Below are positions 6,847-59,211 of a stretch of DNA of 64,000 nt, in pieces (position 1 is the stretch's first letter; each line of letters starts with the position of its first letter). Source of the stretch: SAR324 cluster bacterium. GTDB lineage: Bacteria; SAR324; NAC60-12. Made by a program: the position numbers and the translations under genes. The stretch lies in assembly GCA_028281495.1 (NCBI GenBank), contig JANQJU010000095.1, positions 25,206 through 89,205 on the forward strand, in the 5' to 3' direction. The notes beneath the pieces are model-generated. The model had not been told where the DNA came from, searched no databases, and saw only the letters and a list, made by a program, of their open reading frames with translations.

Positions 6847-6936
6847 GGCGAGGTGGAGTGGTAGTCCTCCGTTTGCCGATGCTGATTTTGTTGAAAAACT
6901 CTTTACAACCAGTTTGTGATTTTGTGATTTCCTATC

Positions 6937-7212: not shown

Positions 7213-7213
7213 A

Positions 7214-7929: not shown

Positions 7930-8011
7930 ACCGAATTCCAGCGCCAAACACTGTGCACGTTGTCGTCGAATTTGATTTCTAAGTTCCATGGAGTCAGCCG
8001 TTGTGACATAG

Positions 8012-8149: not shown

Positions 8150-8296
8150 AGCCAATTCAGAAGGCTAAAATTGTCGTGCAGTAAGTGAAATCATACGAAT
8201 GTAAGAATTATTGTTAATAAACTAATAGTTTATAAATTAGGTTTTCACTGTAACTTTGCTACAGAGATCTATAATTGAATTATAGTTTTTCAAAGC

Positions 8297-9934: not shown

Positions 9935-9971
9935 AGCATCGTATTACACGGAACTATGAAGGAGACGGATC

Positions 9972-10610: not shown

Positions 10611-10619
10611 GGAGGCTGT

Positions 10620-11714
10620 GTGAAAAAATACCGTACCCTGGCAGGACTCGTCATTTTGATTGTGGGAATTGGTATCGTTGCTTTGTTGCAGCTACTCGAT
10701 AACGATGTCTTCCAAGAAGTCCGTGCCCCCGATGCGATCACTGTGAAAGGCTATTATGGAGGGGAAAAAAGGGCATTTTTGCACAACGAAGCGGTTCTGG
10801 ATTTACTGAAGCAGCAATATGGCATCACCTTAGACCTCACCCGTCGAGGGAGTGTAGCTATGGTCACAACCGAATCCTTGGCGGGCTTTGATTTTGTGTG
10901 GCCTTCCAATCAGGTCACTGTGCAGTTGTTCGAGCAAACCCATCCGACGGTTACCTTTAAATCTCAAATCGTGTTCAATTCCCCGTTGGTGATTTACACA
11001 TGGGGGGAAATTGCGGAGGCTTTGGAACAACGCGGTGTGGTGGAAAAGCGAGGTGAGCATTATTACATCTTTCGCGCTAAAGAACTGATGGAATTGGTGT
11101 TGCAGAAAACCAAGTGGTCAGAGTTTGGCCTGAACCGTTGGGGAAGTATTGCTTTAGTGACCACCGATCCCCGTAAATCCAACTCAGGCAATATGGGGGC
11201 AGGCCTGATTGCCAATTTGCTGCAGGGCGAAGTGGTGTCCTTAGACACCCTACCTCAAGTGGAATCACAACTGGTGGACTACTATAAATCATTGGGATTG
11301 ATGGAAGCGTCGTCAGGCACATTGTTTGACAAATTTATCAAATCCAATGGATCGGTAGGCATGATTTTGGGATATGAAAACCAAATGATTGAATTTTCCA
11401 TTGAGCACCAAGAGGCCTTAGAATTGATTCAGCAGCGGGTTCGTGTGCTGTATCCCGAACCCACGATCATGACCAGCCATCCGTTAATCTCTCTGAATGA
11501 AAAGGGGCAACGCTTGCAACAAGCACTCGAAGATCCTCAAATCCAAGAACATGCTTGGCGAGATCATGGGTTCCGTACCGGGATCAGCGGTATCCAAAAC
11601 AATCCTAATGACTTGAAAGGGTTGAAGGTTCCTGAATTCATCACCAACGCCATGCCCATGCCCAGTGCACGGGTCATGAGTCGGATTATCGAGACTTTGA
11701 ATCAGAACCTCTAA
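10620..11714 (+). CDS. Membrane-anchored periplasmic-binding-protein-like protein, paralogous to the N-domain of the 8297 gene
   Basis: GTG start after AAGGAGG and an N-terminal TM helix. ITVKGYYGGEKRAF...FDFVWPSNQV parallels LTIVSGSENKML...YDAVWPANSI in the vWA protein. Confidence 0.55.
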   Translation: MKKYRTLAGLVILIVGIGIVALLQLLDNDVFQEVRAPDAITVKGYYGGEKRAFLHNEAVLDLLKQQYGITLDLTRRGSVAMVTTESLAGFDFVWPSNQVTVQLFEQTHPTVTFKSQIVFNSPLVIYTWGEIAEALEQRGVVEKRGEHYYIFRAKELMELVLQKTKWSEFGLNRWGSIALVTTDPRKSNSGNMGAGLIANLLQGEVVSLDTLPQVESQLVDYYKSLGLMEASSGTLFDKFIKSNGSVGMILGYENQMIEFSIEHQEALELIQQRVRVLYPEPTIMTSHPLISLNEKGQRLQQALEDPQIQEHAWRDHGFRTGISGIQNNPNDLKGLKVPEFITNAMPMPSARVMSRIIETLNQNL

Positions 11715-11746
11715 ATTTTCTCCACTTCCTTTGTTAAGAGGTTGTT

Positions 11747-12898
11747 ATGAGCACAGAAACTTCTTCGACCAGCACGGATCTGACCTTTCCCGGATTACAA
11801 AGCAAACAAGAATTGATTGCCACCGACTCGTTCACTCCAGAAACCTGGAAACGGGTGGAACAAGAAGTGGACAACATTCCGTTTGTGGTGGGAGGTCGTT
11901 TGGCGCTCAACACGACGATCCCACTAACCTTTGGGGCCAAACCTCAGGAGGCGTTGGGGCAGTTTTTGGAAACACTGATTGGCGATATGAAAGCCAAGGA
12001 TGCAGGCATTGCGGGTGATTTGGCTATTGAGTTAGCCCGTGGCATCGAAATGATGAACTTGCATCAAGTGAAAGAAGAACTCACGCAACCACAAAGCATG
12101 TTAGGTAAATTGTGGAAGTCGTTGACCTTTGCTTCCTCGGCCATTGAGGGTTTTTGGGCGCAACATCAAGAGGTGCTTAAGTTGATTGATGCGATCAAGC
12201 AAAAGACGGAAACCCGAAAACGAGCCTTATTGTTCGATTTGGAAAAACTCGACAAACTTTTGGCTCAGTATCAGGTGCATGCGGATGAAGTGCGGCTCTA
12301 TATTGCGGTAGGGGATCGTGTGTTGGAAAAAGCGGAATCCGAGTTTCAAAGCTTGTCAACCAAAACACAAAACGATCCCGAACGCGTGGCAGCTTTGAAG
12401 GATTTCCGTGATTGGATCACCAGTTTTGATGTGCGATTGTTGAATCTGAAAGTTGCTTTCACACAGTCAGTGACAACAGCACCAACGAAAGTCCGTTTGA
12501 TTCAAGAGTCTCAAAAGGTGGAAATTCAGAACATCATTGAATCGATCTTGTTCGATTTACCCAAATTGATGGATGCAATCATCCAAATGGGCAGCTTGTC
12601 CAACATCAAAGAGGCGCAAGCAGAAGACGATGCACGAAGGAAAGTGACGGAACAGTTGGATTCCTTGAGTGCGGAAGCCATACAGCAGGCCTACTTACAA
12701 TCCAAATCGAGTCAAGGTCGCGCATTAGAAACGGTGGAACGGTTGAACACTGTGGCCGAGCATCTGGTCCAAACCTTGGAACAAGGCAAAGCGTTAGAAG
12801 CCCAAAATGAGGAAAAACGCCAGCAAGCCGAAGCGGGGTTGATGGAGATTCAACACAAAGTAGCGCAAGCCTTAGAAGACGCCTCGCGTCCGGCATAA
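11747..12898 (+). CDS. TelA/YaaN-like toxic anion resistance family protein
   Basis: 383 aa and all-helical, which fits TelA family size. Operon context with the XpaC-like gene supports the call. I cannot verify a family-specific motif by eye. Confidence 0.5.
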   Translation: MSTETSSTSTDLTFPGLQSKQELIATDSFTPETWKRVEQEVDNIPFVVGGRLALNTTIPLTFGAKPQEALGQFLETLIGDMKAKDAGIAGDLAIELARGIEMMNLHQVKEELTQPQSMLGKLWKSLTFASSAIEGFWAQHQEVLKLIDAIKQKTETRKRALLFDLEKLDKLLAQYQVHADEVRLYIAVGDRVLEKAESEFQSLSTKTQNDPERVAALKDFRDWITSFDVRLLNLKVAFTQSVTTAPTKVRLIQESQKVEIQNIIESILFDLPKLMDAIIQMGSLSNIKEAQAEDDARRKVTEQLDSLSAEAIQQAYLQSKSSQGRALETVERLNTVAEHLVQTLEQGKALEAQNEEKRQQAEAGLMEIQHKVAQALEDASRPA

Positions 12899-13033
12899 CC
12901 CACACGAGTCCAGCCGATCTCAGTTCAAGAGAACTTAACTGAATTTTCGAGGTTTGAAAGAAGTCCACCAATATGGCAAAGGCCAACAATGTTTAGGGGA
13001 CACCCCCCAGCAAGCGCTAATATTTTTATCGAA

Positions 13034-13537
13034 TCATAGTAATTCAACTAAGCTTTTACGAACTGCTGCGATTGTCATGAAGAGTTTATTAGGCGTATCG
13101 TTAAACGGGGTGAATCCAAACTTTTTATAGAAGGCGATGGCTCCTTCTTTGGCATCAACGATAACCAAGGGGAATGCTACGGTTTCACTGGCTAACAATA
13201 ACTTTCTGAGAGCATCAATTAAAAGCCACTCTCCATACCCCTGGTGCTTGTAACGTTGATCGATAGCTAGTCGAGCAATCAGTCCTCCTGAACTAGCACT
13301 TTGATGTTTTTTCCGCAATTTTAAGGGTAAAGCCGTTAGGTCAATAGGTGTCATTGTGAGAGTGTAAAATCCAATAATACGTTCTGGGAATTTTTCGTCT
13401 TCCAGCACAAAAGTACGAGTATTATCTTTTTTTGCTTGTTGACTAGCCATCACTCTCAAATAATTATTTAGAGCATAAACTCCACAGTCGAAGTAGTTTC
13501 GATCATGCTTATTTTTATCCAATAGAACTGTAATCAT
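13034..13537 (-). CDS. GNAT-family acetyltransferase toxin (TacT/KacT-like)
   Basis: 167 aa. The N-terminal KHDRNYFDCGVYALNNYL matches H-D-x-x-x-F-x-C-G..LN.YL of DUF1778-associated GNAT toxins. The acetyl-CoA loop is RYKHQGYGEWLL. It overlaps the upstream antitoxin gene by 4 nt. Confidence 0.85.
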   Translation of the reverse strand: MITVLLDKNKHDRNYFDCGVYALNNYLRVMASQQAKKDNTRTFVLEDEKFPERIIGFYTLTMTPIDLTALPLKLRKKHQSASSGGLIARLAIDQRYKHQGYGEWLLIDALRKLLLASETVAFPLVIVDAKEGAIAFYKKFGFTPFNDTPNKLFMTIAAVRKSLVELL

Positions 13538-13821
13538 GACTGAACTTTCCCTTTATAACGTTGGGCAGCTTGTTGTAACCGATTATTGGGGTGGACTTGG
13601 TCATCTAATGCTTCAACAAGCATTAAAGCATCGCGTTGCGAGAGTTTAAGGGTACGCTCACGCTCTATAATACTTTTCGCTTTTTCTATTGCTGCACTGA
13701 GCACAAACGAATTAATGCTAGATACTCCAGACAGTGCTGCAGCTTGAGATAATAATTCTTGAGTATCAGTATCTACTCTAGCGGTGATACGAGGACTAGT
13801 AGACGTCATAATAATCTCCAA
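13534..13821 (-). CDS. DUF1778 (TacA/KacA-like) ribbon-helix-helix antitoxin
   Basis: RITARVDTDTQELLSQAAALSGVSSINSFVLSAAIEKAKSIIERE is the canonical DUF1778 pattern, translationally coupled to the GNAT toxin. Confidence 0.85.
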   Translation of the reverse strand: MEIIMTSTSPRITARVDTDTQELLSQAAALSGVSSINSFVLSAAIEKAKSIIERERTLKLSQRDALMLVEALDDQVHPNNRLQQAAQRYKGKVQS

Positions 13822-13922
13822 TGTAGGTGTTATTTTGTTACATTACTTAGAGTATAGTAACATTAGGTTTTAATGCCAAGATGTGCCACTTTGACACATT
13901 TATGGCGAATCAGTCAATCCAC

Positions 13923-14192
13923 CTAGCTTGTTTTGAGATTTATTCGTCGGGGCTGTGCGGGAGGTGATTGGTGACTCAAAATCAAAGTTTGTTGCGTATT
14001 GATAGGCAGGACATGAACCCCCTTGAACGAATAGAAAACCCATCGAGCCGTAGGCCGCTTCGTGGGCTTGCTTTTCTGGTCAGGGAAAGTTGCTTGATGG
14101 TGTTCCAACTGCGTTCGAATTCGATTCTCCAAAGCCGCGTAGACCAGTAAACACAGATCATAATCATCATTAAGTTGGAACCTATTATTCAA
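13923..14192 (-). mobile_element. IS4/IS1634-family transposase C-terminal fragment
   Basis: KPTKRPTARWVFYSFKGVHVL resembles the conserved G-K-P-T-x-R-P-T-x-R-W-(I/V)-F block of IS1634-type transposases. The 89-aa remnant has no catalytic region. Confidence 0.45.
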
Positions 14193-14258
14193 AAACTTAC
14201 AATTTGGACTGAGGAAAAGCGGATAACAGATGGATTGGGGGAAAGGAGTGTAATCGAA

Positions 14259-17200
14259 TTATCCATGGTTGGGCGGGATATTGAGATCAGGAATCTTTAA
14301 AGCATTGCCTATGAAGACCACATTAAACGTAGTAATTTCTATTTTATATCGCTCCATCAATTCTTTACTCCTTGGATGCAATCGAATTTTCCAAGTGGCA
14401 TATAGGGGCGGCCAATTGGTATCGGCCCGAAAGCTATCTTTTCCCGATTGTCGCTTTGACCGTGTGATTTCCCCATTGATAACCTTCACTTCAGACAAAT
14501 ACCGCGTCGAATCTGTACTCTGAAAGTATCGTAGCTTGGTTGGAATTTGATCTGAAATTGGGTCAATGGAATTCTCATCATTTGGATTCACGATCACTTT
14601 ATCCGCAACCAAATTTTGGCAATGGGTTTCTATATCAATCTCCAATTTTTTATCTGACAGAGATTTACTATTGCTTAGCTCCAAATCAATATCCACATGC
14701 TCAACTCGAAAGAAATATAACTTTCTGGTCTCTTCAAAAAATGAAGTATCTGACATTAAATCCAACTCAACAGTTTCTTGATTATTCAGTTGGTCTATTA
14801 GAGCTTGTTTTTCAATAGAGTAGATGACTTTTTCGCCCTTTATCATGCTTTTGGTCATTGGATAGTTTCTGTTGATGATTTTACTTGTCGTCAGATCTGA
14901 CAATTGGTTCTTAAGTTCAAAGGCCTTTTTTTGAATATCAATGAGTGCAATATCCAGTTCAGATTTGCGCAAGAATCGATAGAAAGAGGCGTTCTCGTAA
15001 TCAAGAATCAGTTGAGTAAGCTCCCGATACAAATCAATTTTTGATGTTAAAGTCATTAAGCCCAGTGCCTCGACCTGGGCCTGTTCGGCTTTACTTTCGT
15101 CCTCGAATTCCTTGGCAAGCTCCTTTTGCTGGCGGAGATTTTCACATTTCAACAATTCCACTTGGAGTTTGATTTCCAAATCAAAACGCTTCTCCATCAA
15201 ATTAAAGCCACCTTCGGCCTCGAAACTCATCTGTTCATAGGCTCGCAAAAAGTTTCTTGCACTTTCCTCATTGTAGATATTGTGGATACGGTCTCTTATT
15301 TCGGCATGATTTGTTTTCAATCTCACCAACCAAGCTTTTGCTTCACTCAATTGTTTGATGGGGTCCGGTTCCAGTTCAAGGTCATTTCGTAAACCTGAAT
15401 TTGCGAACAGACTGGAATCGGTTTGATCCAAATCTATGGAAATATTGTGTGCTGCGGACTTCAATTCATCCAAAAGGGGCAAGTATTGGTTTTTATAGTT
15501 TGCTAGCGCGATGAATGCGTTGGCCAATTTTTGCCCGTCGATAGTGCCTTGATGAAAGTCTTGCAAATTTCGTTTAAGCCACATTCTAGACCTATTTTTT
15601 TTCCAACCCTTGTAAAATGATTCCTTCAATTTTTTGCCATAAGGATTGTCCTTGAATGATTTTTCAATATCATCTTTAAGTGTTTCAATTTCTTGGGGCC
15701 ATTTATCGTTTATGTTTTCATTCAATAGATTGAGTTGCTTTATTTCCTTATCGAGTCTCTGTCTATCTTGTGCTTGGTTCTCTCCAGAAGCATTGTCCAT
15801 TTCCTCCTTTTTTTGACGAATGGTGTTTTCGATCTCGGGATATTTTTGTTGGTTAGCTGCGATCCAATCTTCCAACTGTTGTTTTCTTTCTGCGTTTTTA
15901 CCTAGGTTATCAGAATACATTTTGTTGAAGCCTTGGCTGTATTCGTCCCCTTTTTTTGAAATGATTGTTGATGAAATTTTTTCAAATGATTCAACGATGC
16001 TTTTTGTATCCTCATCTTGTATTAGAGCTTTAATACCAACTCCAACGCCACCCACAACAGCCCCCAAAAATAGAGGTGCCGTTGCTCCACCCGTCGCAAT
16101 GGTGACCACTAGGCTTCCCAACATACCAGCAACAGACTCAATGGCATTGAATATCAATTCTTGCCTTCGCTTTTTTTCGAGAGCATCCAATTGGATTTCA
16201 AGTACGTGAAGCAAATACGGTGTGGAATCTCCCAAGTCTTGGATAGCTAGAGACACTTTTTTGATTTCTCTGTCAGTTTGACCAATTGTCTTCTTATAAA
16301 GTTCAATAGTTTCTTGAGAACTATTCCTGGTATTCACTTGAATCAGGTGATGATACTCAGCATTTTTTTTGAACGATTTTAAGAGGGTTGTTAAATTATC
16401 GAGGTTTGTTTCTTTTGATTCCAAAATTTGGATATTTTCGGAAACAAAAATTAGCTTTTTGTAATACTCATCTACATAATACTCTGGAATAGGGTATGGA
16501 TTATCTCTATCTCCGGTGGCTAAAAACTTTTTAACAATGCCGTCCAGGAAGTTCTTCACTAGTATTTTTTGAGAGTTCAAATTTTCGTTTTCAAATTTAC
16601 ATGAACTCAACCAATTGACAATAGATTGTGCTTCTAAATAGTATTTTGACAGTAACAATTCATTGATTAAATCCGATTGAGCGATCACAAATCGTTCTAA
16701 ATTTGGATGTTTCCGCCAAAGCTTTTGGTCTGTTCCAAAGTAGTGAGGGTACAAAAAAAGGGGTTTTTTCAGTGAATAATCTCTAGAAGCGAGTCGTTGT
16801 TCTTCACTAAAATTTCTTGCTGCGTTGATTGTTTGCGTTGAATTTTTTTCAACTTTGTGAAGACTACCTTCACCACTGTACCAAACCTTGAATGAGTAGA
16901 TTGGAGCGCTTTTATTGGATTTAGATAATTGAATATAAGAGTGATCCTTGGTTTCTACTTTGCTTAGTTGGGTAAGTTTAGAGTCAGCATCTATTTTGCT
17001 ATTTGAATGATATATATTCTGATAAGTTATTTGTAACCCGCTATATTCATCCAAACAGAATAGTTGATTAGGATCTTCATCATCAGGAATTACAAAAATT
17101 TGTCGCGCAACAATAGTTAAGCTCGTGCTGACTAAGTTCCGTAGCCATGTGTTCTTGGAGCTTTTGTCTATCAATAGAGTGTCACAGATAATAAACACAT

Positions 17201-36602: not shown

Positions 36603-39600
36603 TCAACTGGACGAAGTCTCATGAGTGAAAAACGAAAAGGGGCGGCATCCCATCTGTTGGTAAAGATGTTCTGCCTGCACCGCATATTCCCCACATTTCT
36701 GGGACTCAACACAGGAGCTTTGGGCTAATAAGGTCTGTGCTTGCGCCTGGGGATAGGGCATTTGAAAGTGTTGAGACCAATGAAGGCTTTTCTTCAAAAT
36801 TCGTACCGCCTGCTGCTCTTTGTCAGAACACCGTAACACCAAAGCTTGGTAAATCAGGCAAGTGGGTTTGAGGATAGGAAAAAGGAGGGCTAATTTTTTG
36901 ACAAAGCCGAAAGCGTTTTTCGTTTTCGCCTGCCATTGCGGAAGTTCTTGGGAGTGCCCTGTGAGTTTGGCAGTCTGCCAACGATGGAGATAAAATTGTA
37001 GTGGCCCCAAACACCCATCGATGACGGTCAACGCCATGGGTAAGGATTGGTTTTGGAGTTCCAACGTGTGATTGGCGACTTCTTCGGCAGATTCCCATTC
37101 CTCCAGGGTCATGTGCGTTTGTATCAATAATCCCAAACAAATGAGCATGGAGGCATAGTCCTGGACTTCCTCCAAATGAGTTTTCGCCTGAATTAGGTAG
37201 GTTTTGGCCCTCTGGGGATGGCCTTTCAGCAGCGCACTCCGGCCACTCATGAATAATCCCCACGCCAAATGCTGCCGATTGTTCCAGGTTTGCCCCACTT
37301 CAATCATTTCATTAAAAATGGTTTGGGTTTCCTGGAGTTGCCCTTGAAAAAATTTTAAGGCCCCTAAGGTCGATTGGTATTGGGCGTAATTTTTGGGGTC
37401 CAAATCTTTATTGATCAAACGTCCCAAATAATCGATCACCCGTTGAGATTCCTGCCACTGTCCCACTCCGGTTAAGTAGTGCCCGACCGCCACAAAAGTA
37501 AATGTTTGGTCATTATACCCCAACGGCCCCTCAGCAGTGAGCGCATAGGTCTCTGCTTTATCCAAGTAATACTGGGCCAGTTTCCGTAGTGTACAGCTTC
37601 CGAGCACCAAACCTAAAAAAGAATGGGCGGCTCCCGAATCGGTGGCCCGACTACGATCGAGCAAATTCACCGCCAAGATCGCACTGCCAATCATGCCCAA
37701 CATGTTGTTACTGAAATAGTACCGCCTGCTGAGGAAGGAGACCAAGAGACTGGCATCTTTCCAATGCGTGACGGGCGGAGCGGCATTCGAGGTTTGAGAT
37801 GCCTTGGAGGAAAAAAGCCGGAAATTCAACTGTCGCCAGGATTGTTTCAGAATGAGTGTGGCCCATTCGCCACGAGACGAAGGAATCGGTTCGCCATATT
37901 CCGCTAAAGCCCGAATGGCCTGGTGTTCGGATTGCTGCAAGTCACCGAGGTCTTCATAAGATCGGGCAACCCCTGCCAACCACGTGGCCATTTGATTCGG
38001 ATGGCTCAACTTCCGTTTTTGGGCAATGGCGATCGCTTTCTCAAAATAAGTGATCGATTCTTTGGGAACCAACGATTGACGGGCATGAAAGCCCGCTTGA
38101 CCGAAGTATCCCATCGCCGTCTCTGGTTTTCCTCCTTCGAGCCAGTGATGGGCCAATGGGGCTAACAGGGACGGGTCGGAAGACTCCTTGAAATTCGATT
38201 CCATCACTGTTGCGGCGGCTTGATGATAATGTTCATTTTGAGCAGGAGAGATCATGTTGGTACAACATTCGCGGAGCTTATCATGCGTGAAGCTCACCCG
38301 CCCTGGTTGGCTCTCTTCCAAAATACCAGCCTGAAAGAGTTCTTCGAGCACCGGAGGCCAATCTTTCTCGTCCTGGCTTACATCGTCCTGGCTTAAGATG
38401 ACTGAAACCAGATTCACTTCAAATACGCGCCCCAGAATGCTCCCGACGTGTAAAAAAATTTGTCCAGCTTCTGGCAATGCCTGGATCCTACGAACCAGTA
38501 ATTCCTGAATGCTATTGGGGGTTTCCAACTGAAAGTTTGAGGACGCCGATGCCTGTGGAGGGGGCTGAAATTGCCAATGGCCTTCATGAGTACGGGCAAA
38601 CCAATTTTCAGCAACCGCCATTCGTAAATATTCGGCCACATAAAACGGATTCCCTTCACTTTCGTGATACAGGAGTTTGACCAGAGGGGGCGGGAATTGA
38701 GAGAGAGCCAGCATACTCTCCAATTGTTGACTCACTTCGTTCTGGGTCAATCGCTCCAACTGGAATGAAACCACGTCTTTATTTTCATTCAAGGCTTGTA
38801 AAATGGAAGGGACCTCCTCTGTACGATAAAATCCAATGAGCAACACATTCATGGCTTGGAGTTTTTCAGGAAGCAACCACTCCAAAATGCTCAAGGTCAG
38901 TTCGTTGGCCCATTGTAAATCGTCGAGGATCAAAACCAGTTTTGTGGTACGGGCATAGTGGTTCAGCATCTCTGCAAAGGCGTGCTTGACTTCCTGCAAC
39001 AAAACTTCAGTGGGGAGATCGATTCCCCAAATGCTGTCTGGAGCTTCCAATAATTTTCCTAACTCCTTCACTTTAGGCTCGTAGAGAGACAATACGGCAT
39101 ATTGGTCTCCAAGCCACTGTTGGGTTTTTTCTTTTCCATCCAACTTACATTGCTCCACCACCTCTTTTAAAAAGGCTTGAAAGGGTTGCGTGTTGGTTGA
39201 AAACTGAGACTGATGCCCCATCATTTCAGTAGTTGGCACCGTTTCTCCACGAACCACGTGAAAGAAACGTCCTTGAAACAATCGAGCCAATTCATTGGCA
39301 AAAAAGGTTTTGCCCATACCACTTTCTCCACGAATCAATACGGCTCCTCCTTGTGTAGACTCAGGGTCTAGGAACGGTCTCAAGGCACGAATCAAGTCAC
39401 GACGCCCTGTAAAAGTAGGACGGTATAAATAATTGGACGCAGCGGGTGCCATTTCGCGAAACTCTTTTTGGAATTGTCGTGAAGTGTGGGGTAAGAGTTG
39501 TTGAACAACATCAGAGGCATAACCGGGGCGATCGGTCATGGACTTGGCTAGTAGAGATTGCACAAGCTGGTTTATCGGCTGCGGGAGATTTTCCACTTCT

Positions 39601-40337
39601 GGGGCTAAGGGGGGAGGAGGGAGGCTTAAATGATCTCGGAGCTGGGAATGGGAATTGGGGAAAGGGAGTCTTCCTGTTAGGAGTTCGTAGAAGATACAGC
39701 CAAGAGCATAAAGATCCGTTCTGGCATCCAAAGCAATACAGCGAATTTGTTCTGGCGCTGTATAGCCGGGACTGCCTCCTATGCTGAAGTCTGCTTCCAA
39801 AGCCATCTTATTTGGAGTGCTGTAAAATCGGCAAGTTTGTTCAAAATCAATAATGATGGCTTTTCCAGAAGGTGTGATGAGGATATTTTCTGGTTTGAGA
39901 TCCGCATGCACTAAGCCATATTGGTGCAATTGAGATAATGGATAGCATATCTGACAAATTAGAGTGCAGGCTTCTTGAAAGATGGTGGATTCGAGTTGGT
40001 TTGAGGGTTTGAGGGTTTGCCAAATTTGTTGTTGGTGTTCGCGTAGCGTTTTTCCCTCAACCCAAGAACGGGCAACCCATTGAATGCTTTGAAACATCCC
40101 TTTTTCCACAATGAACAGCTCTTCCGAGACCCTCTCTGATTCTAGAATTTGGATTTCTCGTTGCAGCCCAAGAAACTTTTGAGGATGCGCTTCTTGAGCC
40201 GTCTTTACAATCACTCGTTGTTCTGACGATTTGCAATACCCTCGATAAGTGCTTCCACTGGGGGCTTGGATCAAAGGTTCACTGAGCTCAATAGAACCCA
40301 GGTGGAGCGGAAAATCATGATGAGGAGAAACTGACAT
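36603..40337 (-). CDS. Ser/Thr protein kinase fused to a STAND AAA ATPase and TPR-like helical repeats
   Basis: Kinase motifs HADLKPENILI and GSPGYTAPEQ are followed by the P-loop IRGESGMGKTFFANELA. The C-terminal ~600 aa is helical and repeat-rich. Confidence 0.85.
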   Translation of the reverse strand: MSVSPHHDFPLHLGSIELSEPLIQAPSGSTYRGYCKSSEQRVIVKTAQEAHPQKFLGLQREIQILESERVSEELFIVEKGMFQSIQWVARSWVEGKTLREHQQQIWQTLKPSNQLESTIFQEACTLICQICYPLSQLHQYGLVHADLKPENILITPSGKAIIIDFEQTCRFYSTPNKMALEADFSIGGSPGYTAPEQIRCIALDARTDLYALGCIFYELLTGRLPFPNSHSQLRDHLSLPPPPLAPEVENLPQPINQLVQSLLAKSMTDRPGYASDVVQQLLPHTSRQFQKEFREMAPAASNYLYRPTFTGRRDLIRALRPFLDPESTQGGAVLIRGESGMGKTFFANELARLFQGRFFHVVRGETVPTTEMMGHQSQFSTNTQPFQAFLKEVVEQCKLDGKEKTQQWLGDQYAVLSLYEPKVKELGKLLEAPDSIWGIDLPTEVLLQEVKHAFAEMLNHYARTTKLVLILDDLQWANELTLSILEWLLPEKLQAMNVLLIGFYRTEEVPSILQALNENKDVVSFQLERLTQNEVSQQLESMLALSQFPPPLVKLLYHESEGNPFYVAEYLRMAVAENWFARTHEGHWQFQPPPQASASSNFQLETPNSIQELLVRRIQALPEAGQIFLHVGSILGRVFEVNLVSVILSQDDVSQDEKDWPPVLEELFQAGILEESQPGRVSFTHDKLRECCTNMISPAQNEHYHQAAATVMESNFKESSDPSLLAPLAHHWLEGGKPETAMGYFGQAGFHARQSLVPKESITYFEKAIAIAQKRKLSHPNQMATWLAGVARSYEDLGDLQQSEHQAIRALAEYGEPIPSSRGEWATLILKQSWRQLNFRLFSSKASQTSNAAPPVTHWKDASLLVSFLSRRYYFSNNMLGMIGSAILAVNLLDRSRATDSGAAHSFLGLVLGSCTLRKLAQYYLDKAETYALTAEGPLGYNDQTFTFVAVGHYLTGVGQWQESQRVIDYLGRLINKDLDPKNYAQYQSTLGALKFFQGQLQETQTIFNEMIEVGQTWNNRQHLAWGLFMSGRSALLKGHPQRAKTYLIQAKTHLEEVQDYASMLICLGLLIQTHMTLEEWESAEEVANHTLELQNQSLPMALTVIDGCLGPLQFYLHRWQTAKLTGHSQELPQWQAKTKNAFGFVKKLALLFPILKPTCLIYQALVLRCSDKEQQAVRILKKSLHWSQHFQMPYPQAQAQTLLAQSSCVESQKCGEYAVQAEHLYQQMGCRPFSFFTHETSSS

Positions 40338-52772: not shown

Positions 52773-53195
52773 ATGATCAATTTTATCGAAGTTAGCAAAG
52801 CAATATCCCATGCGTTACGCCACGAACCATGGCTTTATGAATTGGAATTGGATCAAGAAGGCTGGGTTCCTATGGAACAGATGTTATCTGCATTACACTC
52901 TGAAAAACCGGATTGGGAGTCCTTACAAGAGAGCGATCTTCATACAATGATGGCGCGATCGGAAAAGCAACGGTATGAGATCCAAGATGGCAAAATTCGG
53001 GCGCTTTATGGTCATTCAGTACCAGGGAAGGTCACCAAAACTTCCACAGCGCCCCCCTTGGATTTCGACTCCAGTATTGGGGGTTCGATGCCTCCCGCCC
53101 CTACCAATCTAAAAGGTTTAAATAGAATATCTAACGATAAATATGCAGCTATGGGAAAAGAATTCAAAAGGTTTGAGAAGCTACAGTCAATGTAA
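52773..53195 (+). pseudogene. kptA: RNA 2'-phosphotransferase (KptA/Tpt1), only the N-terminal ~95 codons; the rest of the ORF is read-through into unrelated sequence
   Basis: ISKAISHALRHEPWLYELELDQEGWVPMEQMLSAL...KQRYEIQDGKIRALYGHSV...APP parallels the E. coli KptA N-lobe as I recall it. The expected ..LYHGT.. and the NAD-binding lobe are absent. Similarity ends at nt 53057. Confidence 0.7.
53058..53106 (+). pseudogene. 3' half of a tRNA-Arg(UCG) with encoded CCA (anticodon arm to 3' end), no 5' half
   Basis: TTGGA-TTTCGAC-TCCAG (anticodon UCG with U33 and A37), variable TATT, T-arm GGGGG-TTCGATG-CCTCC, acceptor strand CGCCCCT, then A and CCA. The upstream sequence is kptA coding, with no D-arm or 5' acceptor strand. 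Confidence 0.7.
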
Positions 53196-53348
53196 AAACT
53201 GATAATTTCTATAACCTTTTTAAAAGAATGAAGTCCATTAAACGAGTCTATGGGATGGATTCGATATGTCCACCCGGCGCATTGTTTCTGAAAATTGAAA
53301 TTCTGTGTATCGACCTGGACTTTAGCCAGTGCCTGTCAAGCGCTGGAT

Positions 53349-53421
53349 TCACGCGGCCGCAGGTTCAATTCCTGCCACCTTTCGAGGTGTAGCTCAGTTG
53401 GTTAGAGCACGTGTCTATTGG
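53349..53421 (+). ncRNA. Circularly permuted tRNA-like element (order 39-72 then 1-38) with acceptor helix closed as CACCT-TTCG-AGGTG
   Basis: Read in order: TCACG, CGGCC, GCAGG-TTCAATT-CCTGC, CACCTTT, CGAGGTG, TA, GCTC-AGTTGGTTA-GAGC, A, CGTGT, CTATTGG. All canonical tertiary positions are present (U8, A14, G15:C48, G18G19, T54T55C56, G53:C61). Whether it is transcribed or functional is unknown. Confidence 0.5.
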
Positions 53422-53500
53422 GATAGCTCTGCGAGAGCAACGGACTGAAAATCCGTGAATGCAGGTGGGCCGCAACAGCGGACCATTCCTGCTCCACAAT
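53417..53500 (+). ncRNA. Aberrant tRNA-Phe(GAA)-like element: short D-loop without GG, and a T-loop carrying an 18-nt hairpin insertion
   Basis: Acceptor ATTGGGA / TCC(A)CAAT with one bulge, then TA and D-arm GCTC-TGCGA-GAGC. The anticodon arm is ACGGA-CTGAAAA-TCCGT. The T stem GCAGG/CCTGC encloses T-GGGCCGC-AACA-GCGGACC-ATT. No CCA is encoded. Confidence 0.45.
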
Positions 53501-53776: not shown

Positions 53777-54931
53777 ATGTTCAAAATTTTGTTTATATGG
53801 ATATGTCGACTGTTGATGTTTGAACGGATTCTTGTGCAAGAAAATCAACGTGTACTGGTGTTTCGAGATGGAACGTTCCTTAAAATTCTATCGCCAGGCA
53901 CCTATTGGTTTTTTAAGGCACTTCATGAATTGACCTTTGAAAATCACGATATCACGCAACCTCAATTTTGTAGTGAATGGACCGATGTATTGTTGAAAAA
54001 TCACAAAGATGAAGTAGCGGATTGTTTGACCTGGGTTGATATTCTGGATCATCAGGTCGCGCTCGTTTCATTGAACGGAAAGGCTTATGAACTGCTTCCT
54101 TTAGGAGCACGTCGGGCTTATTGGACTGTGATGCATGAGCTTGATTTTGAGGTGATTGACACGTCGCAGAATCTGCAGGTGCCTCCTGAAAAAGTACCTA
54201 CACTGATGCGACTGAGGTCCAATCATTTCAGCTGGCACATTGTTACTGAAAACAGTGTAGGGTTGCTGTTTGTCAATGGTCAACTGACTCAACAATTGGG
54301 GCCTGGAGGTTATGCGTTTTGGAAAACTGGGTTAGAGCTACGGTTCGAAATTCTAGATTTGCGGGTGCAGCAAGTTGAAGTGGTTGGACAAGAAATTTTG
54401 ACCAAAGATCGTGTCAGCTTACGAGTGAATTTGACCGCGCATTACCAAGTGATGGATCCGGTTAAAGCCAAAACTCAGGTGGTTGGTTATTCCGATATGC
54501 TTTACAAATACTTACAGTTCGGTTTGCGTGAAGCGATTGGTGGCCGAAATTTGGACGAACTCTTGTTGGATAAAAACCAACTCAACGAAGTCGTTTTCTC
54601 CACAGCTAAAAACCAAATTGAAGCGTGTGGCGTGGAGTTAAAAGCGGTAGGTATCAAGGACATCATTTTGCCTGGCGAAATCCGGGACATCATGAACCAA
54701 GTGGTTGAAGCACAAAAGCGTGCCGAAGCCAACTTGATCAAAAGGCGTGAAGAAACCGCTGCTACCCGATCCTTGCTCAACACAGCTAAGTTGATGCAGG
54801 ACAATCCCACGTTGCTGCGCCTCAAGGAGCTAGAAGCGCTAGAAAAGGTAACGGATAAAATCGACAACCTGCATGTCTATAATGGGGTCGAGGGATTGAT
54901 GAATAACTTGGTCCCTTTGGCTAAATCGTAA
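53777..54931 (+). CDS. SPFH/band-7 (stomatin/prohibitin-like) domain protein with an N-terminal SPFH-like duplication
   Basis: ATG at 53777 after AAAGGAGG is preferred to the tracked 53726. The N-terminal TM helix is followed by VQENQRVLVFRDGTF..LSPGTYWFF and again by VTENSVGLLFVNGQL..LGPGGYAFWK. The canonical SPFH core is ILTKDRVSLRVNLTAHYQVMDP...REAIGGRNLDELL, with a coiled-coil tail. Confidence 0.75.
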   Translation: MFKILFIWICRLLMFERILVQENQRVLVFRDGTFLKILSPGTYWFFKALHELTFENHDITQPQFCSEWTDVLLKNHKDEVADCLTWVDILDHQVALVSLNGKAYELLPLGARRAYWTVMHELDFEVIDTSQNLQVPPEKVPTLMRLRSNHFSWHIVTENSVGLLFVNGQLTQQLGPGGYAFWKTGLELRFEILDLRVQQVEVVGQEILTKDRVSLRVNLTAHYQVMDPVKAKTQVVGYSDMLYKYLQFGLREAIGGRNLDELLLDKNQLNEVVFSTAKNQIEACGVELKAVGIKDIILPGEIRDIMNQVVEAQKRAEANLIKRREETAATRSLLNTAKLMQDNPTLLRLKELEALEKVTDKIDNLHVYNGVEGLMNNLVPLAKS

Positions 54932-54945
54932 CTTAACAAGAGCGT

Positions 54946-54973
54946 GGGTTTTCACATCAATTTGTGAAAATCC
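54946..54973. terminator. 11-bp stem hairpin GGGTTTTCACA-TCAATT-TGTGAAAATCC between convergent genes
   Basis: Lies 15 nt after the SPFH stop and ~120 nt after the TIR gene stop on the other strand. One G:T pair, and no strong T-run follows, so terminator function is uncertain. Confidence 0.35.
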
Positions 54974-55094
54974 ATGTTCTTACCCTTGAAATCGACTTTA
55001 CCCTCGAAATGAAATGCGGTCGCCCTGGAAGACGTTATCAATTCACTTGCGGTAGTATGTGAAATTAGAAAGGAGTGGCAATTTTTGTTAAGCA

Positions 55095-56492
55095 TTATTT
55101 ATTCTTTACCCTTAGAGATTTAAGCAAACGCTCCTTTGCATTTTCGTACTGGCTATCATTTCTCCAATTTGAAAAATCTGCGACATGTTGCTGTTTAAAA
55201 AGCATCTTCACCCAGGCTAATTGCGATCTTAGCACCGAATCATCCAATCGAATCGGTAATATATTTGATTTTCCTTGAGCAGCCCAATGGTATTCCTTTG
55301 AGACCCATTCGCTTTTTATAGAATGCCTTGAAAGTATGACAAGAAACACCTTACTACGTTGAATCTCTGCCAGAATCGTTTCTTTTAGATAATCTCCTCC
55401 GTAAAGATCATTGTACCAACAGTTCACACCACCGAGAGTCAGGTCAGCATATAGCCTATTGGTAAACTCTCTATCTTCTGAAGTATGGCTCATAAAACAA
55501 AAATCCCTTTCATGTATCTGAGCTTCATCTAATAGGATTGCATCCCTTAAATTAGCCTCACCAAATTCTGTTCGACGGACTTTTACCTTGCGTAAATCTG
55601 TCTTTGTCAACCTCGCTCCTGAAAGATTCGCTTGTCTTAGATCTGCTCCCTGAAGATTCGCGTGTTCCAAAATTGCGTTCTCGAAATCTGCGTGTAGGAG
55701 ACTTGAATTTCTGAAGTCTCCACCGCTCAAATCGACTTCCTTCAAAACGACTCTGTTCATGGTCGAATTTTGACATCTGGGAGGCTCTTCAAAATCTGCT
55801 TTTAAAAAGTTTGCCTCACTTAGATTGGCTTCTTCGAAATCTGTATTCATCAGGCGAGCACTTTCAAAGTTGGCTTCACCCAGGTACGCATATCTGAAAT
55901 CTGTATTCATCAGGCGAGCACTTTTAAAGTTTGCTTCACTCAGGTCCGCATATCTGAAATCTGTATTCATCAGGCGAGCACTTTCAAAGTTGGCTTTTTG
56001 AAGTTTCGCCTCACGAAAGTCTGCTCTATTGAGATTTGCTTCATAAAACCTAGAATCGTCCAAAATCGCTTTGACAAGGTCGGCTTCTTGAAGCATCGCC
56101 CCACTGAGATTAGTATTATTCAAATCTGTTCTAAAGAGAGTTGCATTACTGAGATCCGTATTACTCAATTCCGCATGACTTAAATTAGCTCCCTCCAGTT
56201 CAACACCCTGCAAGTTAGCATCACTAATATTTGCTTCACTGAGATTAGAGTCTTTCAAATCGGCACCACGAAAGTCAGCCCCTTGAAGATTAGCACCGCT
56301 GAGATTTGCTTCGTTTAATTTCCAATTGCTAAAATCCTTGTTTCTTAAATCTACCTTCTTGAGGTCAGCTATTTCTCCTTCTTCGCCTTCTGACTCAACC
56401 CATTCTTCATGTTTTTCGAGAATGAGTTCCAACTCTTCTGCAGAAATTTTTCGTAAATCAGCCACTGAATCTCTCAACTTGAGTTTTTCCAA
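55095..56492 (-). CDS. Pentapeptide-repeat protein with C-terminal TIR domain
   Basis: ~250 aa of A(D/N)LxG-type pentapeptide repeats (ANLSGANLQGADFRGADLKDSNLSEANISDANLQG...), then FMSHTSEDREFTNRLYADLTLGGVNCWYNDL...VFLVILSRHSIKSEWVSKEYHWA. This fits the TIR pattern, including the conserved Glu after S..W. Confidence 0.8.
   Translation of the reverse strand: MEKLKLRDSVADLRKISAEELELILEKHEEWVESEGEEGEIADLKKVDLRNKDFSNWKLNEANLSGANLQGADFRGADLKDSNLSEANISDANLQGVELEGANLSHAELSNTDLSNATLFRTDLNNTNLSGAMLQEADLVKAILDDSRFYEANLNRADFREAKLQKANFESARLMNTDFRYADLSEANFKSARLMNTDFRYAYLGEANFESARLMNTDFEEANLSEANFLKADFEEPPRCQNSTMNRVVLKEVDLSGGDFRNSSLLHADFENAILEHANLQGADLRQANLSGARLTKTDLRKVKVRRTEFGEANLRDAILLDEAQIHERDFCFMSHTSEDREFTNRLYADLTLGGVNCWYNDLYGGDYLKETILAEIQRSKVFLVILSRHSIKSEWVSKEYHWAAQGKSNILPIRLDDSVLRSQLAWVKMLFKQQHVADFSNWRNDSQYENAKERLLKSLRVKNK
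55838..55996 (-). repeat. Intragenic 60-bp tandem repeat, ~2.6 near-identical copies, encoding ESARLMNTDFRYA(D/Y)L(S/G)EANF(K/E)
   Basis: The sequence lines 55861, 55921 and 55981 are almost identical in register: ...AAATCTGTATTCATCAGGCGAGCACTTT(C/T)AAAGTT(G/T)GCTTCAC... Confidence 0.9.
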
Positions 56493-56586
56493 ACTACTAA
56501 GTAATAACGTAAGAATTGGGGATAACTCAAGCCGATCCGTAAATATTCAGAGTAACTATGAGAATGTCATTACATTAGAGTGAGTT

Positions 56587-59211
56587 ATGAATAAAGTTTA
56601 CGACCAGTATTGGGGGAAAGCAAAGTCTACCAAAACCGTTAGTCACCACCTATTTGCTTACCACAGCCTGGATGTGGTCGCAGTGGGAACCCGTTGGTGG
56701 GAAACGAGTGTTGCTTTGCGTAACGGGATGATTCGAGCGATGGGTGTCGATGAACCTCAAGCCAAGGCCTGGATGCAATTCTTTTTAGGGCTGCATGATT
56801 TAGGAAAGCTCGATTTTCGTTTCCAGCAGAAGGCTCCTCAGGTTGCAAAAAAACTGGGGCACTCGGTCGAGAACTCCAGAAAGCGTTCAAATTATGATCA
56901 CGGAGAATGGGGGTTCACTTGGTACCAACGCGAGCGGGAATCACGCTATGGTTTGCCCGAACGAAAGAGGGCTTATTGGATTCAATGGGGACGAGCCGTT
57001 ACCGGACATCATGGACGCTTTTATCAATGCGTTGACAAGAGCACGGTTGAAGGTCTCATGATCAACGAAGCCTCGCGAGATGTATGGAATAAAGATCAGT
57101 TGGCTCGCACTGAATGGTGTGAGGATTTGTATGAATGGTTTCTCGTTCCAGCAGGCCTCAGCAAAACATCGCTTTCCCCTCCCTGTCCCCACCAATTCGC
57201 TGGGTTTTGCTGCGTCTGTGATTGGCTTGGTTCCAATGAAACACCAGGTTTCTTTGAGTATGATGACCAACCCTATCCTGACTTGATGCAATACTTTCAG
57301 TCACGCTTTCCGATTGCTCAGCACAGTCTTCAAACAAGCGGTTTGTTCGTTCCCGCAGTGAACAAAGGGGGAGTTTCCTTAGTTCTTGAACAAGGCCAAT
57401 CTCCCCGAAAAGTGCAAAGTTTAGTGGAACAACTACCAGTGCAACCTGGATTGACCATCATCGAAGCTTCCACAGGTTCTGGCAAAACAGAGACGGCTCT
57501 GGGCTATGCAAGTATTCTCCTAGCAAACTCGCTTGCAGACAGTGTGATGATTGCCTTACCCACTCAAGCCACCGCCAACACTATGTTGGCACGAATGGAA
57601 AAGATCGCGCCCCGCTTGTTTCCAGTTCAAGTGAATTCTCCCCACTCACTCAGCAATCTGCTATTGGCACATGGAAAATCTAACTTCGAGCCGCGTTTTA
57701 TTGAACTCAAAAAGACGATGTATCGCAATACCGCTCAAGGGAAGGAGGAGGCTCTTACGCAATGTTCTCAATGGTTAGCTGAAAGCCGGAAGCGTGTGTT
57801 TTTAGGTCAAATTGGTGTCGGGACTATCGATCAGGTACTCATGTCGGTTTTACCAATTCGTCATCAATTTGTTCGTGGTTTCGGATTGCACAAAAGTGTG
57901 CTGATTGTGGATGAAGTTCATGCTTATGATTTTTATATGGTGGGGCTGTTGGAAGAAGTCTTAAAAAAGCAACGGGAAGCGGGCGGCAGTGCCATAATGC
58001 TATCGGCAACATTACCAGCGATACAAAAATCGGTTCTCTTAAAAGCTTGGAGCAGTAAGGAAGATGCATCGGCGAATTCGCCATATCCTCTGATTACTCA
58101 CGTCAATCAGGAAGGTAGGTTTCAAACATTTAAAATAGCAGACAAAGCTCAGGAAATAGCAGACAAAGTTCGCCAATCGCCATCGAATGGTATCAAACTG
58201 GAACGGTTGGTAACCTCCGATTGGCGATTGTCCCAACAACAAATGGATCGAGTACTTGAGGCCGCAACTTCCGGTGCTCATGTGGCAATTGTGCTGAATT
58301 TAGTTGATGAAGCTCAAAGACTTTTCAAACAACTGACACAACGAGTGAACGGACGGCCCATTGCTCTGGATTTATTTCATGCACGTTTTCGTTTCAAAGA
58401 TCGCCAAACTCGTGAACAGGCAGTGATCGAACATTACCAACCCCGTTCTATCCTCAAACCGGGGCGTATTCTGGTTGCTACTCAGGTCGTTGAACAAAGC
58501 CTCGATCTCGATTTCGATTGGCTCATCACTCATTTGTGCCCCGTTGATTTACTGTTTCAACGTATCGGGCGTTTGCATCGACACCAAACCACGAAACGTC
58601 CTCAGGGGTTTGAAAATCCGTTGTGTACGGTCATTTTAAATCAGGGAAACAATTATGGCCTCCACCAATTGATTTATGGAAATGCCTCTGTGTTATGGCG
58701 TACCAAGGAATTATTGAAATCGCATGATTGTTTAAAGTTCCCCTACATCTACCGACCTTGGATTGAGCAAGTGTATCAAGAGGATGCTTGGTCCGATGAA
58801 CCTGCTTCCATTCAAAAGCAAAAGGCCGAATTTTTAGTGGAACAGAAAACTCGAAACCAAACAGCAAAGCAACTGAGCCAAGAATGGTTTACGCCTTTGA
58901 AAGATAATGATCAAAACGCGGCATTACTGACACGTGATGGAGAAATGGGTCTCAATCTACTCTTGGGCAGAAACGACAATTCTTCATTTCAATTGTTGGA
59001 TGAGGACTGGGATAAGGCTTTTGTCAACGAGCAAATCAACCGCCATACGGTTGCGGTACCTGCCTCTTGGAAACGATTTTTACACGAACCAAAACAGGGA
59101 TTATATCACGTCTCGATGAAGCCCCACCCTGATATCGAATCGGAGTGGGCCAGCGATGAACTCAAGTTACGCTACAGCTCTGAGCGAGGGCTAGAAAGGG
59201 TCAATGGATGA
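56587..59211 (+). CDS. cas3: Type I-E Cas3 HD nuclease / SF2 helicase
   Basis: N-terminal HD domain (HHLFAYHSLDVVAV, GLHDLGKLDFRFQ), helicase motifs STGSGKTE (I) and VDEVHAYD (II). 874 aa, directly upstream of and overlapping cse1. Confidence 0.9.
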   Translation: MNKVYDQYWGKAKSTKTVSHHLFAYHSLDVVAVGTRWWETSVALRNGMIRAMGVDEPQAKAWMQFFLGLHDLGKLDFRFQQKAPQVAKKLGHSVENSRKRSNYDHGEWGFTWYQRERESRYGLPERKRAYWIQWGRAVTGHHGRFYQCVDKSTVEGLMINEASRDVWNKDQLARTEWCEDLYEWFLVPAGLSKTSLSPPCPHQFAGFCCVCDWLGSNETPGFFEYDDQPYPDLMQYFQSRFPIAQHSLQTSGLFVPAVNKGGVSLVLEQGQSPRKVQSLVEQLPVQPGLTIIEASTGSGKTETALGYASILLANSLADSVMIALPTQATANTMLARMEKIAPRLFPVQVNSPHSLSNLLLAHGKSNFEPRFIELKKTMYRNTAQGKEEALTQCSQWLAESRKRVFLGQIGVGTIDQVLMSVLPIRHQFVRGFGLHKSVLIVDEVHAYDFYMVGLLEEVLKKQREAGGSAIMLSATLPAIQKSVLLKAWSSKEDASANSPYPLITHVNQEGRFQTFKIADKAQEIADKVRQSPSNGIKLERLVTSDWRLSQQQMDRVLEAATSGAHVAIVLNLVDEAQRLFKQLTQRVNGRPIALDLFHARFRFKDRQTREQAVIEHYQPRSILKPGRILVATQVVEQSLDLDFDWLITHLCPVDLLFQRIGRLHRHQTTKRPQGFENPLCTVILNQGNNYGLHQLIYGNASVLWRTKELLKSHDCLKFPYIYRPWIEQVYQEDAWSDEPASIQKQKAEFLVEQKTRNQTAKQLSQEWFTPLKDNDQNAALLTRDGEMGLNLLLGRNDNSSFQLLDEDWDKAFVNEQINRHTVAVPASWKRFLHEPKQGLYHVSMKPHPDIESEWASDELKLRYSSERGLERVNG

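Follow-up and report, generated by a model that had tools for sequence, protein, structure and literature searches.

We analysed a 64,000-nucleotide stretch of contig JANQJU010000095.1 from a SAR324 cluster bacterium (hereafter, the window), focusing on a gene that encodes an array of pentapeptide repeats followed by a C-terminal TIR domain. We refer to it as PRP–TIR (PRP, pentapeptide-repeat protein or region). The gene is monocistronic: an SPFH gene converges on it from one side, and the cas3 gene of a type I-E CRISPR system diverges from it on the other. Its frame is uninterrupted over 465 codons, from a TTG at 56492 to the stop codon at 55095–55097, and residue numbers are counted from this TTG throughout. 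Judged by its sequence context, the GTG at 56465 is the likelier start, because its offset to an RKIS motif is the same as in P0031, the closest full-length homolog, because the gene caller chose the same start on independent Logan contigs, and because GAGAG sits 5 nt upstream. The protein would then have 456 amino acids, beginning with MADLRKISAEEL..., which aligns with MNKDRKISKAEL... in P0031. Exact-sequence look-ups with the 465-aa and 456-aa forms did not find the protein on record; the full gene was never called in short-read assemblies because their contigs break inside a repeat within the array. The gene and its parts are as follows.

55095–56492, minus strand: PRP–TIR coding sequence (open reading frame list, Pfam Pentapeptide and TIR_2, AlphaFold2 model)
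56370–56465, minus strand: N-terminal helical cap, residues 10–41 (AlphaFold2 model, family alignment, charge)
55518–56369, minus strand: PRP right-handed quadrilateral beta-helix, residues 42–325, ~14 coils of 20 aa (model, 20-aa register, Foldseek)
55836–55996, minus strand: duplicated coils, 60-bp unit in 2.7 copies (Tandem Repeats Finder, coil identity matrix, Logan break points)
55743–55802, minus strand: irregular coil, residues 231–250, KADFEEPPRCQNSTMNRVVL (register print-out, drop in coil identity)
55098–55502, minus strand: TIR domain, residues 331–465, flavodoxin-like, strands A–E (Pfam, PDB sequence matches, TIR-only model, Foldseek)
55293–55307, minus strand: WxxxE motif W396-V-S-K-E400 in helix C (HMMER alignment to AbTir)

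Architecture and predicted fold

The Pentapeptide family of Pfam matched the protein in seven stretches (E = 2.4e-64; 212.8 bits against a cutoff of 20.2), and TIR_2 (PF13676) matched residues 333–456 (E = 5.7e-19; 69.2 bits against a cutoff of 28). Weaker matches to Pfam TIR and ThsB_TIR cover the same C-terminal segment. We built a full-length AlphaFold2 model from 53 family sequences, with a mean predicted local distance difference test (pLDDT) score of 87.6. The model opens with two helices, at residues 2–15 and 18–35. The N-terminal cap is very acidic, with a net charge of −9 over 32 aa, and corresponds in alignments to the family motif L..L..G...W..W.

The solenoid that follows the cap is strictly periodic in the model, with one strand per five residues and pLDDT above 90. 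Family score, 20-aa register, model and Foldseek agree in assigning it to the pentapeptide-repeat fold (PF00805, or Rfr fold), which is built of tandem A(D/N)LXX repeats. Its Foldseek matches are HetL (3du1), Np275/276 (2j8k), MfpA, Qnr and AlbG, with E values of 1e-12 to 1e-7 for HetL, Np275/276 and MfpA/Qnr. After the irregular coil KADFEEPPRCQNSTMNRVVL, which itself retains pLDDT above 90, the register shifts by +1 and the helix is split into two sub-arrays. With a net charge of −14 over its 284 aa and a pI of 4.8, the array has a moderate acidity, which would allow DNA mimicry without demonstrating it.

The junction with the TIR domain (residues 321–330) is short and modelled with lower confidence. 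Beyond it, the full-length model shows a TIR fold of five strands and five helices (residues 331–464), and a model of the TIR domain alone reached a pLDDT of 85.1 and a predicted template modelling score (pTM) of 0.81. The first-pass annotation of this stretch, made from the sequence without database searches, had proposed an array of ~250 aa fused to a C-terminal TIR domain. Pfam and the model bear out the architecture; the array itself is longer than proposed, at ~280 aa and 14 coils.

Catalytic-type residues and structural neighbours of the TIR domain

HMMER against all PDB sequences aligned residues 332–403 with PdTIR (3h16, 4.6e-8), AbTir (7uwg/8g83, ~1e-7), BtpA/TcpB and Cat1 (1.9e-5). 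In the HMMER alignment, S335, W396 and E400 lie opposite S140, W204 and E208 of AbTir. AbTir needs these three residues for NADase activity, and W204 is also needed to make the cyclic ADP-ribose isomer 2'cADPR (PMC11374754). The string SEWVSKE, in which the earlier annotation had recognized the context of the conserved Glu, spans residues 394–400. W396 is encoded at 55305–55307 and the putative catalytic E400 at 55293–55295. On proper alignment the catalytic-type Glu is thus retained, within the WxxxE motif of helix C and opposite AbTir E208. It is nearly invariant across the family alignments, and every residue that is invariant in a 16-sequence family alignment is kept in the PRP–TIR protein, E400 included. 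From these alignments the TIR domain looks catalytically competent.

Foldseek with the TIR-only model returned SPARTA TIR–APAZ as the best match (template modelling (TM) score 0.70–0.74), followed by RPS4, BtpA, SARM1, Cat1 and AbTir. SPARTA, BtpA, SARM1, Cat1 and AbTir are the NAD-cleaving TIRs among these nearest structural matches.

A duplicated 60-bp unit within the solenoid

Tandem Repeats Finder reported a repeat at 55836–55996 with a period of 60, 2.7 copies and 94% matches. Full units lie at 55921–55980 and 55861–55920, with a partial unit at 55835–55860. As 60 bp encode 20 aa, that is, four pentapeptides or one turn of the helix, each extra unit adds one coil and keeps both frame and helical phase. 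When the 14 coils were compared all against all, those starting at residues 171, 191 and 211 share 93%, 82% and 78% DNA identity; the remaining pairs share at most 60%, and the overall mean is 35%. The similarity of the 60-bp units is therefore far beyond the background resemblance of pentapeptide repeats. Units 1 and 2 differ at four nucleotides, giving three non-synonymous changes (D/Y, S/G and K/E) and one synonymous change. The three replacements all fall at outward-facing i−1 or i+1 positions; at n = 3, the most this shows is that the core positions have been left intact.

The repeat array is not an assembly artefact. Its longest exact repeat is 41 nt, so that reads of ordinary length resolve it. 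On the SPFH side, Logan contigs assembled at k = 31 from two runs stop at 55865, and on the cas3 side those from two runs begin at 55967. These positions mark the 30-mers at the start and end of the 41-nt repeat, where a k = 31 graph must break, and the contigs are otherwise 100% identical to the window. As independent contigs break exactly where the 41-nt repeat predicts, we regard the array as genuine. The recent in-frame expansion read from the sequence in the first pass is thus real.

With a beta-helix rise of ~4.8 Å per coil, the two added coils would extend the rod by roughly 1 nm, and the whole ~14-coil rod would be roughly 6–7 nm long. We also considered whether near-identical adjacent coils might be a special feature of this protein and rejected the idea, as near-identical neighbouring repeats are frequent in pentapeptide proteins at large. 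The duplication is genuine, yet not exceptional for this fold.

A PRP–linker–TIR family and the divergence of this member

A search with the full-length protein returned thousands of pentapeptide proteins, and we inspected the 120 best. About 47 of these share the PRP plus TIR_2 layout, at 360–570 aa and 28–39% identity, mostly with more than 85% query coverage. The TIR region alone was searched exhaustively with HMMER against 1.84 billion cluster representatives. It had 10,462 matches at E ≤ 1e-3, of which 1,433 reached E ≤ 1e-10, and identity never exceeded 44%. Among the 149 nearest TIR relatives, 68 carry a PRP N-terminus; this number of PRP-bearing cluster representatives applies to those 149 only. 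The rest have other modules, the majority not recognized by Pfam; Response_reg, CHAT, Mrr_cat, NA-iREase1, WD40, SLFN-AlbA_2, Cas6 and Band_7 appear in few or single cases.

The PRP arrays closest to that of the window carry not a TIR but a caspase (PF00656; P0002 and P0117), PLD-like (PF13091; P0082) or Mrr (PF04471; P0115) domain. At the level of domain composition, the comparison points to one PRP scaffold on which effectors have been exchanged. Keeping the effector while sensors are swapped, and keeping the repeat while effectors are swapped, is a pattern of prokaryotic conflict systems, in which pentapeptide repeats have been classed among the superstructure-forming modules (PMC7159879, PMC8195603).

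The PRP–TIR relatives, annotated merely as 'pentapeptide repeat' or 'TIR domain-containing protein', form an uncharacterized PRP–linker–TIR family. Its members, P0031, P0018 and P0109 among them, have the same order of parts as the window protein: the cap, the PRP beta-helix and a C-terminal TIR with WxxxE. A C-terminal DFSNW...LL..L helix is likewise shared in alignments. In the family, a conserved linker of ~60 aa (GLE..H.GPS.IGIDTIY.S.G.IPE.FLRGCG.PD.FI) joins the last repeat to the TIR, and a hidden Markov model (HMM) of this linker matched 113 of 116 PRP+TIR proteins. In the window protein, by contrast, the solenoid runs on through residues 251–325 to six residues before TIR strand A.

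The span from cap to linker ranges from 79 to 306 aa in the family, and the PRP of the window protein (~280 aa) falls in the upper tail. These spans are quantized in fives, with 43 of 62 in one mod-5 class. A family rule of whole-coil quantization was considered and rejected, since the spans fall in all four mod-20 classes; with steps of five and none of twenty, a whole number of coils is no requirement in the family. In annotated collections, the one match was an irrelevant protein with an N-terminal TIR from a chromid of Pseudoalteromonas; GenBank phages gave none. Taken together, these comparisons identify the window gene as a linker-less, freshly expanded and divergent member of an uncharacterized but database-visible PRP–TIR family.

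Genomic company of family members

We examined nine loci of the family, a small sample. One of them, L006 (ERZ25039467 contig_75149, 4985–16880), holds six tandem PRP–TIR paralogs with PRP lengths of 88, 108, 108, 128, 128 and 198 aa. The paralogs are 42% identical in the PRP (30% counting gaps), 53% in the linker and 61% in the TIR. Alongside lie a PNP_UDP_1–TIR protein, an NB-ARC–WD40 protein and interspersed transposases or insertion sequence elements, and the locus looks like a diversifying sensor array. The suggestion from the first pass that the length of the PRP surface varies is borne out here for both length and sequence, given the range of spans in the family and the paralogs of L006, which differ most in the PRP.

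The surroundings of L007 include a NACHT protein, one more PRP protein, a further TIR protein and a serine recombinase. The family also occurs on four IMG/VR contigs, two of which we annotated (L019 and L020, not L017 and L018). The PRP–TIR gene of L019 (2204–3517) adjoins an endolysin amidase gene and a weakly matching, below-threshold tape-measure gene, and that of L020 (7593–8573) shares its contig with capsid and tape-measure genes, which suggests that these two members are prophage cargo. Some family loci are therefore TIR/STAND conflict islands (L006 and L007), and others are prophage or unremarkable. No cas genes were found at the nine loci.

Neighbouring genes and the CRISPR question

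The features flanking the PRP–TIR gene are as follows.

53777–54931, plus strand: SPFH/Band_7 gene, 384 aa from ATG, convergent with PRP–TIR across a 163-nt gap
56466–56586, no strand: divergent spacer between PRP–TIR and cas3 (from coordinates; 121 nt, or 94 nt with the TTG start)
56587–59211, plus strand: cas3, type I-E (NCBIfam PRK09694, E = 1e-286)

cas3 is followed by cse1, cse2, cas7, cas5 and cas6e, a complete-looking type I-E operon. The spacer had been described in the first pass as a 94-nt divergent promoter region shared with cas3. The divergent layout stands, over a spacer whose length is likelier 121 nt; the promoter is not supported. Within the spacer there is one weak sigma-70-like match (9 of 12, minus strand), promoter-like sites across 54800–56700 are not more numerous than in shuffled sequence, and a scan of the same interval found no terminator-like site. 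Judged from the letters, the 'shared divergent promoter' appears to be a matter of geometry only.

A scan for Cas3 in GTDB representative genomes found only a relative of 29% identity, and a scan of JGI metagenomes with the TIR region found one TIR-only protein at 42% and no close ortholog. To our knowledge, type I-E systems make no cyclic-oligoadenylate signal. The adjacency to cas3, the sole indication of a functional tie, most likely reflects defence-gene clustering or chance, and a functional link to the CRISPR system is very unlikely.

PADLOC, a check proposed with the first-pass annotation, matched only the TIR part of the protein, with PDC-S66 (2e-12) and weak ThsB, TIR-NLR and SAVED-TIR matches. 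The PDC-S66 match covers profile positions 137–240 of 282, which correspond to the TIR part, and does not extend to the full protein. The four neighbouring genes on the other flank of PRP–TIR gave no PADLOC matches, and ten further window proteins gave only kinase-domain matches, to a distant STK–AAA–TPR protein. No ThsA-like gene was found among the 15 window proteins scanned with PADLOC.

The SPFH gene was considered as a partner and set aside: a Band_7 domain is fused to the TIR in one distant relative, but it shows no sequence similarity to the SPFH protein of the window. Further along on this side, a 140-aa open reading frame (52773–53195, plus strand) matches only the N-terminal half of KptA/Tpt1 (PTS_2-RNA positions 4–88 of 177). 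It lacks the NAD+-binding half, its tail overlaps a string resembling a tRNA 3' end, GGGGGTTCGATGCCTCCCGCCCCTACCA (~53060–53107), and it is probably a truncated remnant. At 53333–53427 (plus strand) there is a sub-threshold match to YrlA, a Y RNA-like family (37.5 bits against a gathering threshold of 69). It overlaps by ~10 nt a tRNA-like element at 53418–53500 (plus strand; 28.7 against a gathering threshold of 29; anticodon-loop CTGAAAA), in whose region ARAGORN made no call. The interval 53333–53500 could be a Y-RNA-like or tRNA-like non-coding RNA, or degraded tRNA or attachment-site debris. No rRNA or tRNA was found in the 64-kb window.

Two unusual, 'eukaryote-like' genes lie ~15–25 kb from the PRP–TIR gene. 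One (36603–40337, minus strand) encodes a 1244-aa Ser/Thr kinase–AAA_16–TPR protein, STAND-like, whose kinase domain matches PADLOC PD-T4-6 models; the other (30855–32852, minus strand) encodes a 665-aa protein with a MACPF/perforin domain. The contig of the window was also recovered in Logan assemblies SRR20820732, SRR20820734 and SRR20820735. A conserved 840-aa window protein of the major facilitator superfamily/spermidine-synthase type has a best non-self relative of 57% identity, and the few matches with a name, lower in rank, are mostly to Pseudomonadota or Gammaproteobacteria MAGs. Given this value and the lack of a close Cas3 in GTDB representatives, the host appears to belong to a lineage without a close representative.

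Proposed function and alternative explanations

We propose that the protein is a stand-alone, single-polypeptide sensor-effector of the uncharacterized PRP–TIR family, with a PRP that binds or assembles and a TIR that cleaves NAD+, and we give this proposal about an even chance. It starts from the observed architecture, fold, catalytic-type residues, duplication, family membership and genomic company, and it would entail NADase activity, activation driven by oligomerization, an immune role and a binding target for the PRP. The capped, rigid beta-helix rod of ~14 coils would be the variable module, binding a trigger, most plausibly a phage or invader protein, or controlling self-assembly; the constant C-terminal TIR would be the effector. 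Self-association of TIR domains forms the active site in SARM1, plant TIRs, AbTir filaments, SPARTA and Cat1. Bringing several copies together may likewise form composite TIR active sites around E400. Such sites would cleave NAD+, leading to its depletion and possibly to cyclic ADP-ribose isomers, whose production is possible because the motif Trp (W396) is kept. Loss of NAD+ would then arrest growth of the infected cell. The in-frame 60-bp duplication would have added two whole coils and produced a longer rod.

Several observations weigh against this proposal. The linker HMM found no match in the window protein or in two others of the 116 PRP+TIR proteins. In the TIR domain, R151 and D167 of AbTir align with N345 and N361, and R346 and D362 are displaced by one residue. 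Compared with AbTir and with the family consensus, the BB-loop segment is shorter by two residues. Given the absent linker, the shorter BB loop and the offset R/D equivalents, activity could be altered or lost. The duplication need not be adaptive, as near-identical adjacent repeats are common in PRPs. The PADLOC models match the TIR part only, which leaves the protein as a whole outside any curated defence model. The surroundings are metabolic or unannotated for three of the nine loci examined (L008, L009–L012 and L016). Literature searches gave no paper testing any PRP–TIR protein.

Some of these points would also fit a decaying or non-enzymatic relic, in which loss of the linker and drift of the TIR have left a scaffold without an NADase role, and the duplication is neutral slippage. 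Absence of a linker that 113 of 116 relatives possess, identity of at most 44% to any TIR among the 1.84 billion representatives, the truncated KptA gene and tRNA-like debris in the neighbouring DNA, and the commonplace nature of PRP duplications are all consistent with decay. The 465-codon frame is intact, however, and the model is confident; the residues invariant in the 16-sequence alignment, E400 among them, are all kept, and independent read sets that cover the flanks, three of them on the cas side and two on the side of the SPFH gene, give an identical sequence. We consider a relic unlikely. An active TIR might instead generate a signal in the manner of ThsB, making a cyclic ADP-ribose-type messenger to which a receptor-effector encoded elsewhere responds. 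The ThsB_TIR family of Pfam reaches 26.3 bits where the cutoff is 21.2, PADLOC ThsB models match weakly, and the WxxxE Trp, whose AbTir counterpart is required for 2'cADPR (PMC11374754), is kept. A partner of the SIR2, SLOG or Macro type was nevertheless found neither beside the gene, nor among the window proteins scanned, nor beside the family members examined (L006, L007, L008, L009–L012 and L016). Thoeris genes are normally adjacent. A receptor of the ThsA type, for which a search had been recommended, did not turn up in the proteins scanned, and we judge signal generation of this kind improbable.

A role outside immunity, as a secreted effector against eukaryotic cells of a grazer or host, would combine a TIR like that of BtpA/TcpB/TcpC with a PRP of the PipB2/SopA type. 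Partial NCBIfam matches to PipB, PipB2 and SopA, the presence of BtpA/TcpB and PdTIR among the best PDB sequence matches, and the MACPF protein and eukaryote-like kinase encoded in the window speak for it. The scores of all effector models are far under their cutoffs, however (108 against 274, for instance), relatives come from soil Acidobacteriota and Chloroflexota, from prophages and from STAND/TIR islands, and no secretion-system genes were seen near PRP–TIR, which makes this explanation quite improbable. The first-pass annotation had left the choice between a stand-alone sensor-effector and an accessory of the CRISPR locus. As an accessory or back-up of the type I-E system, the gene could, for example, be co-regulated from the spacer, or its DNA-mimicking rod could guard Cas3/Cascade against phage inhibitors. 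Divergence from cas3 across 94–121 nt and the acidity of the PRP agree with this idea; a CRISPR-associated TIR exists in Cat1, and one distant TIR relative has a fused Cas6 domain. Cat1, however, relies on CARF and on cyclic tetra-adenylate (cA4) from type III systems, both absent here; the promoter signal in the spacer does not exceed chance, no ortholog with conserved synteny was found in genome or metagenome collections, and recurrent co-occurrence with cas genes is not seen, with none at any of the nine family loci examined. The accessory role is accordingly very improbable. Its most elaborate form is hardly to be expected: the acidic rod would be a DNA-mimicking bait for phage DNA-binding or anti-CRISPR proteins, guarding the type I-E system through NAD+ collapse by the TIR, with coil duplications tuning the length of the bait. 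Between the two options left by the annotation we favour the stand-alone sensor-effector, at the even chance given above. That proposal and the four alternatives together account for about nine-tenths of our expectation, the remainder being left to possibilities not listed here.

The family is large, it includes tandem paralog arrays with variable rod length and it rides on prophages, so that it can reasonably be put forward as a candidate for a new defence system of one gene. The window gene, as a linker-less variant with a fresh two-coil expansion, offers a useful natural length series; alone, it leaves the picture unchanged. It is a sensible candidate for experiments, if no surprise to a specialist, and the suggested tie to CRISPR, which would have been its most interesting part, is unsupported.

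Comparison with known systems

Among solved structures, AbTir, PdTIR and BtpA (TcpB) are the best sequence matches of the TIR domain (E 5e-8 to 2e-5). These proteins have coiled-coil or other N-terminal regions, whereas the window protein has a pentapeptide rod. The closest structural match, SPARTA TIR–APAZ, is the paradigm of a TIR kept inactive until a sensor drives oligomerization. SPARTA has APAZ and an Argonaute partner; the window protein is without both, and its sensor would be the PRP in the same chain. The match to Thoeris ThsB is just over the cutoff for ThsB_TIR (PF08937), and the PADLOC ThsB models gave weak, partial matches (E 7.5e-7 to 2.5e-3). Thoeris has an adjacent thsA, whereas the window gene is bordered by the SPFH gene and cas3; a Thoeris-type reading, Thoeris being among the TIR systems cited in the first pass, finds no ThsA partner in the window proteins scanned. 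NCBIfam matches to HalA (Hailong) and retron-TIR, at ~30 bits against cutoffs of 250 and 600, were set aside as domain-level similarity only. Cat1, a TIR effector encoded with CRISPR genes, resembles the window TIR in sequence and in the Foldseek search. Its CARF domain senses cA4 in a type III setting, whereas Pfam finds no CARF in the window protein and the neighbouring system is type I-E.

On the PRP side, HetL, Np275/276 and MfpA/Qnr have the same right-handed quadrilateral beta-helix; unlike the window protein, they are stand-alone proteins of ~200 aa without an effector domain. NCBIfam scores stay far under the respective cutoffs for HetL (182 against 260), Qnr (95.3 against 240) and MfpA (63.6 against 360), which places the window protein outside the topoisomerase-protecting Qnr/MfpA group as defined by the equivalog cutoffs. 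TIR domains are an immune effector common to bacteria, plants and animals, and the switch that starts NAD+ cleavage has become clear with each new way in which a sensor is coupled to them. A pentapeptide rod would be a further candidate type of sensor or scaffold; our literature searches brought up no paper on such a rod joined to a TIR in defence. The PRP–TIR family is a variant on the known theme of sensor-coupled TIR immune effectors.

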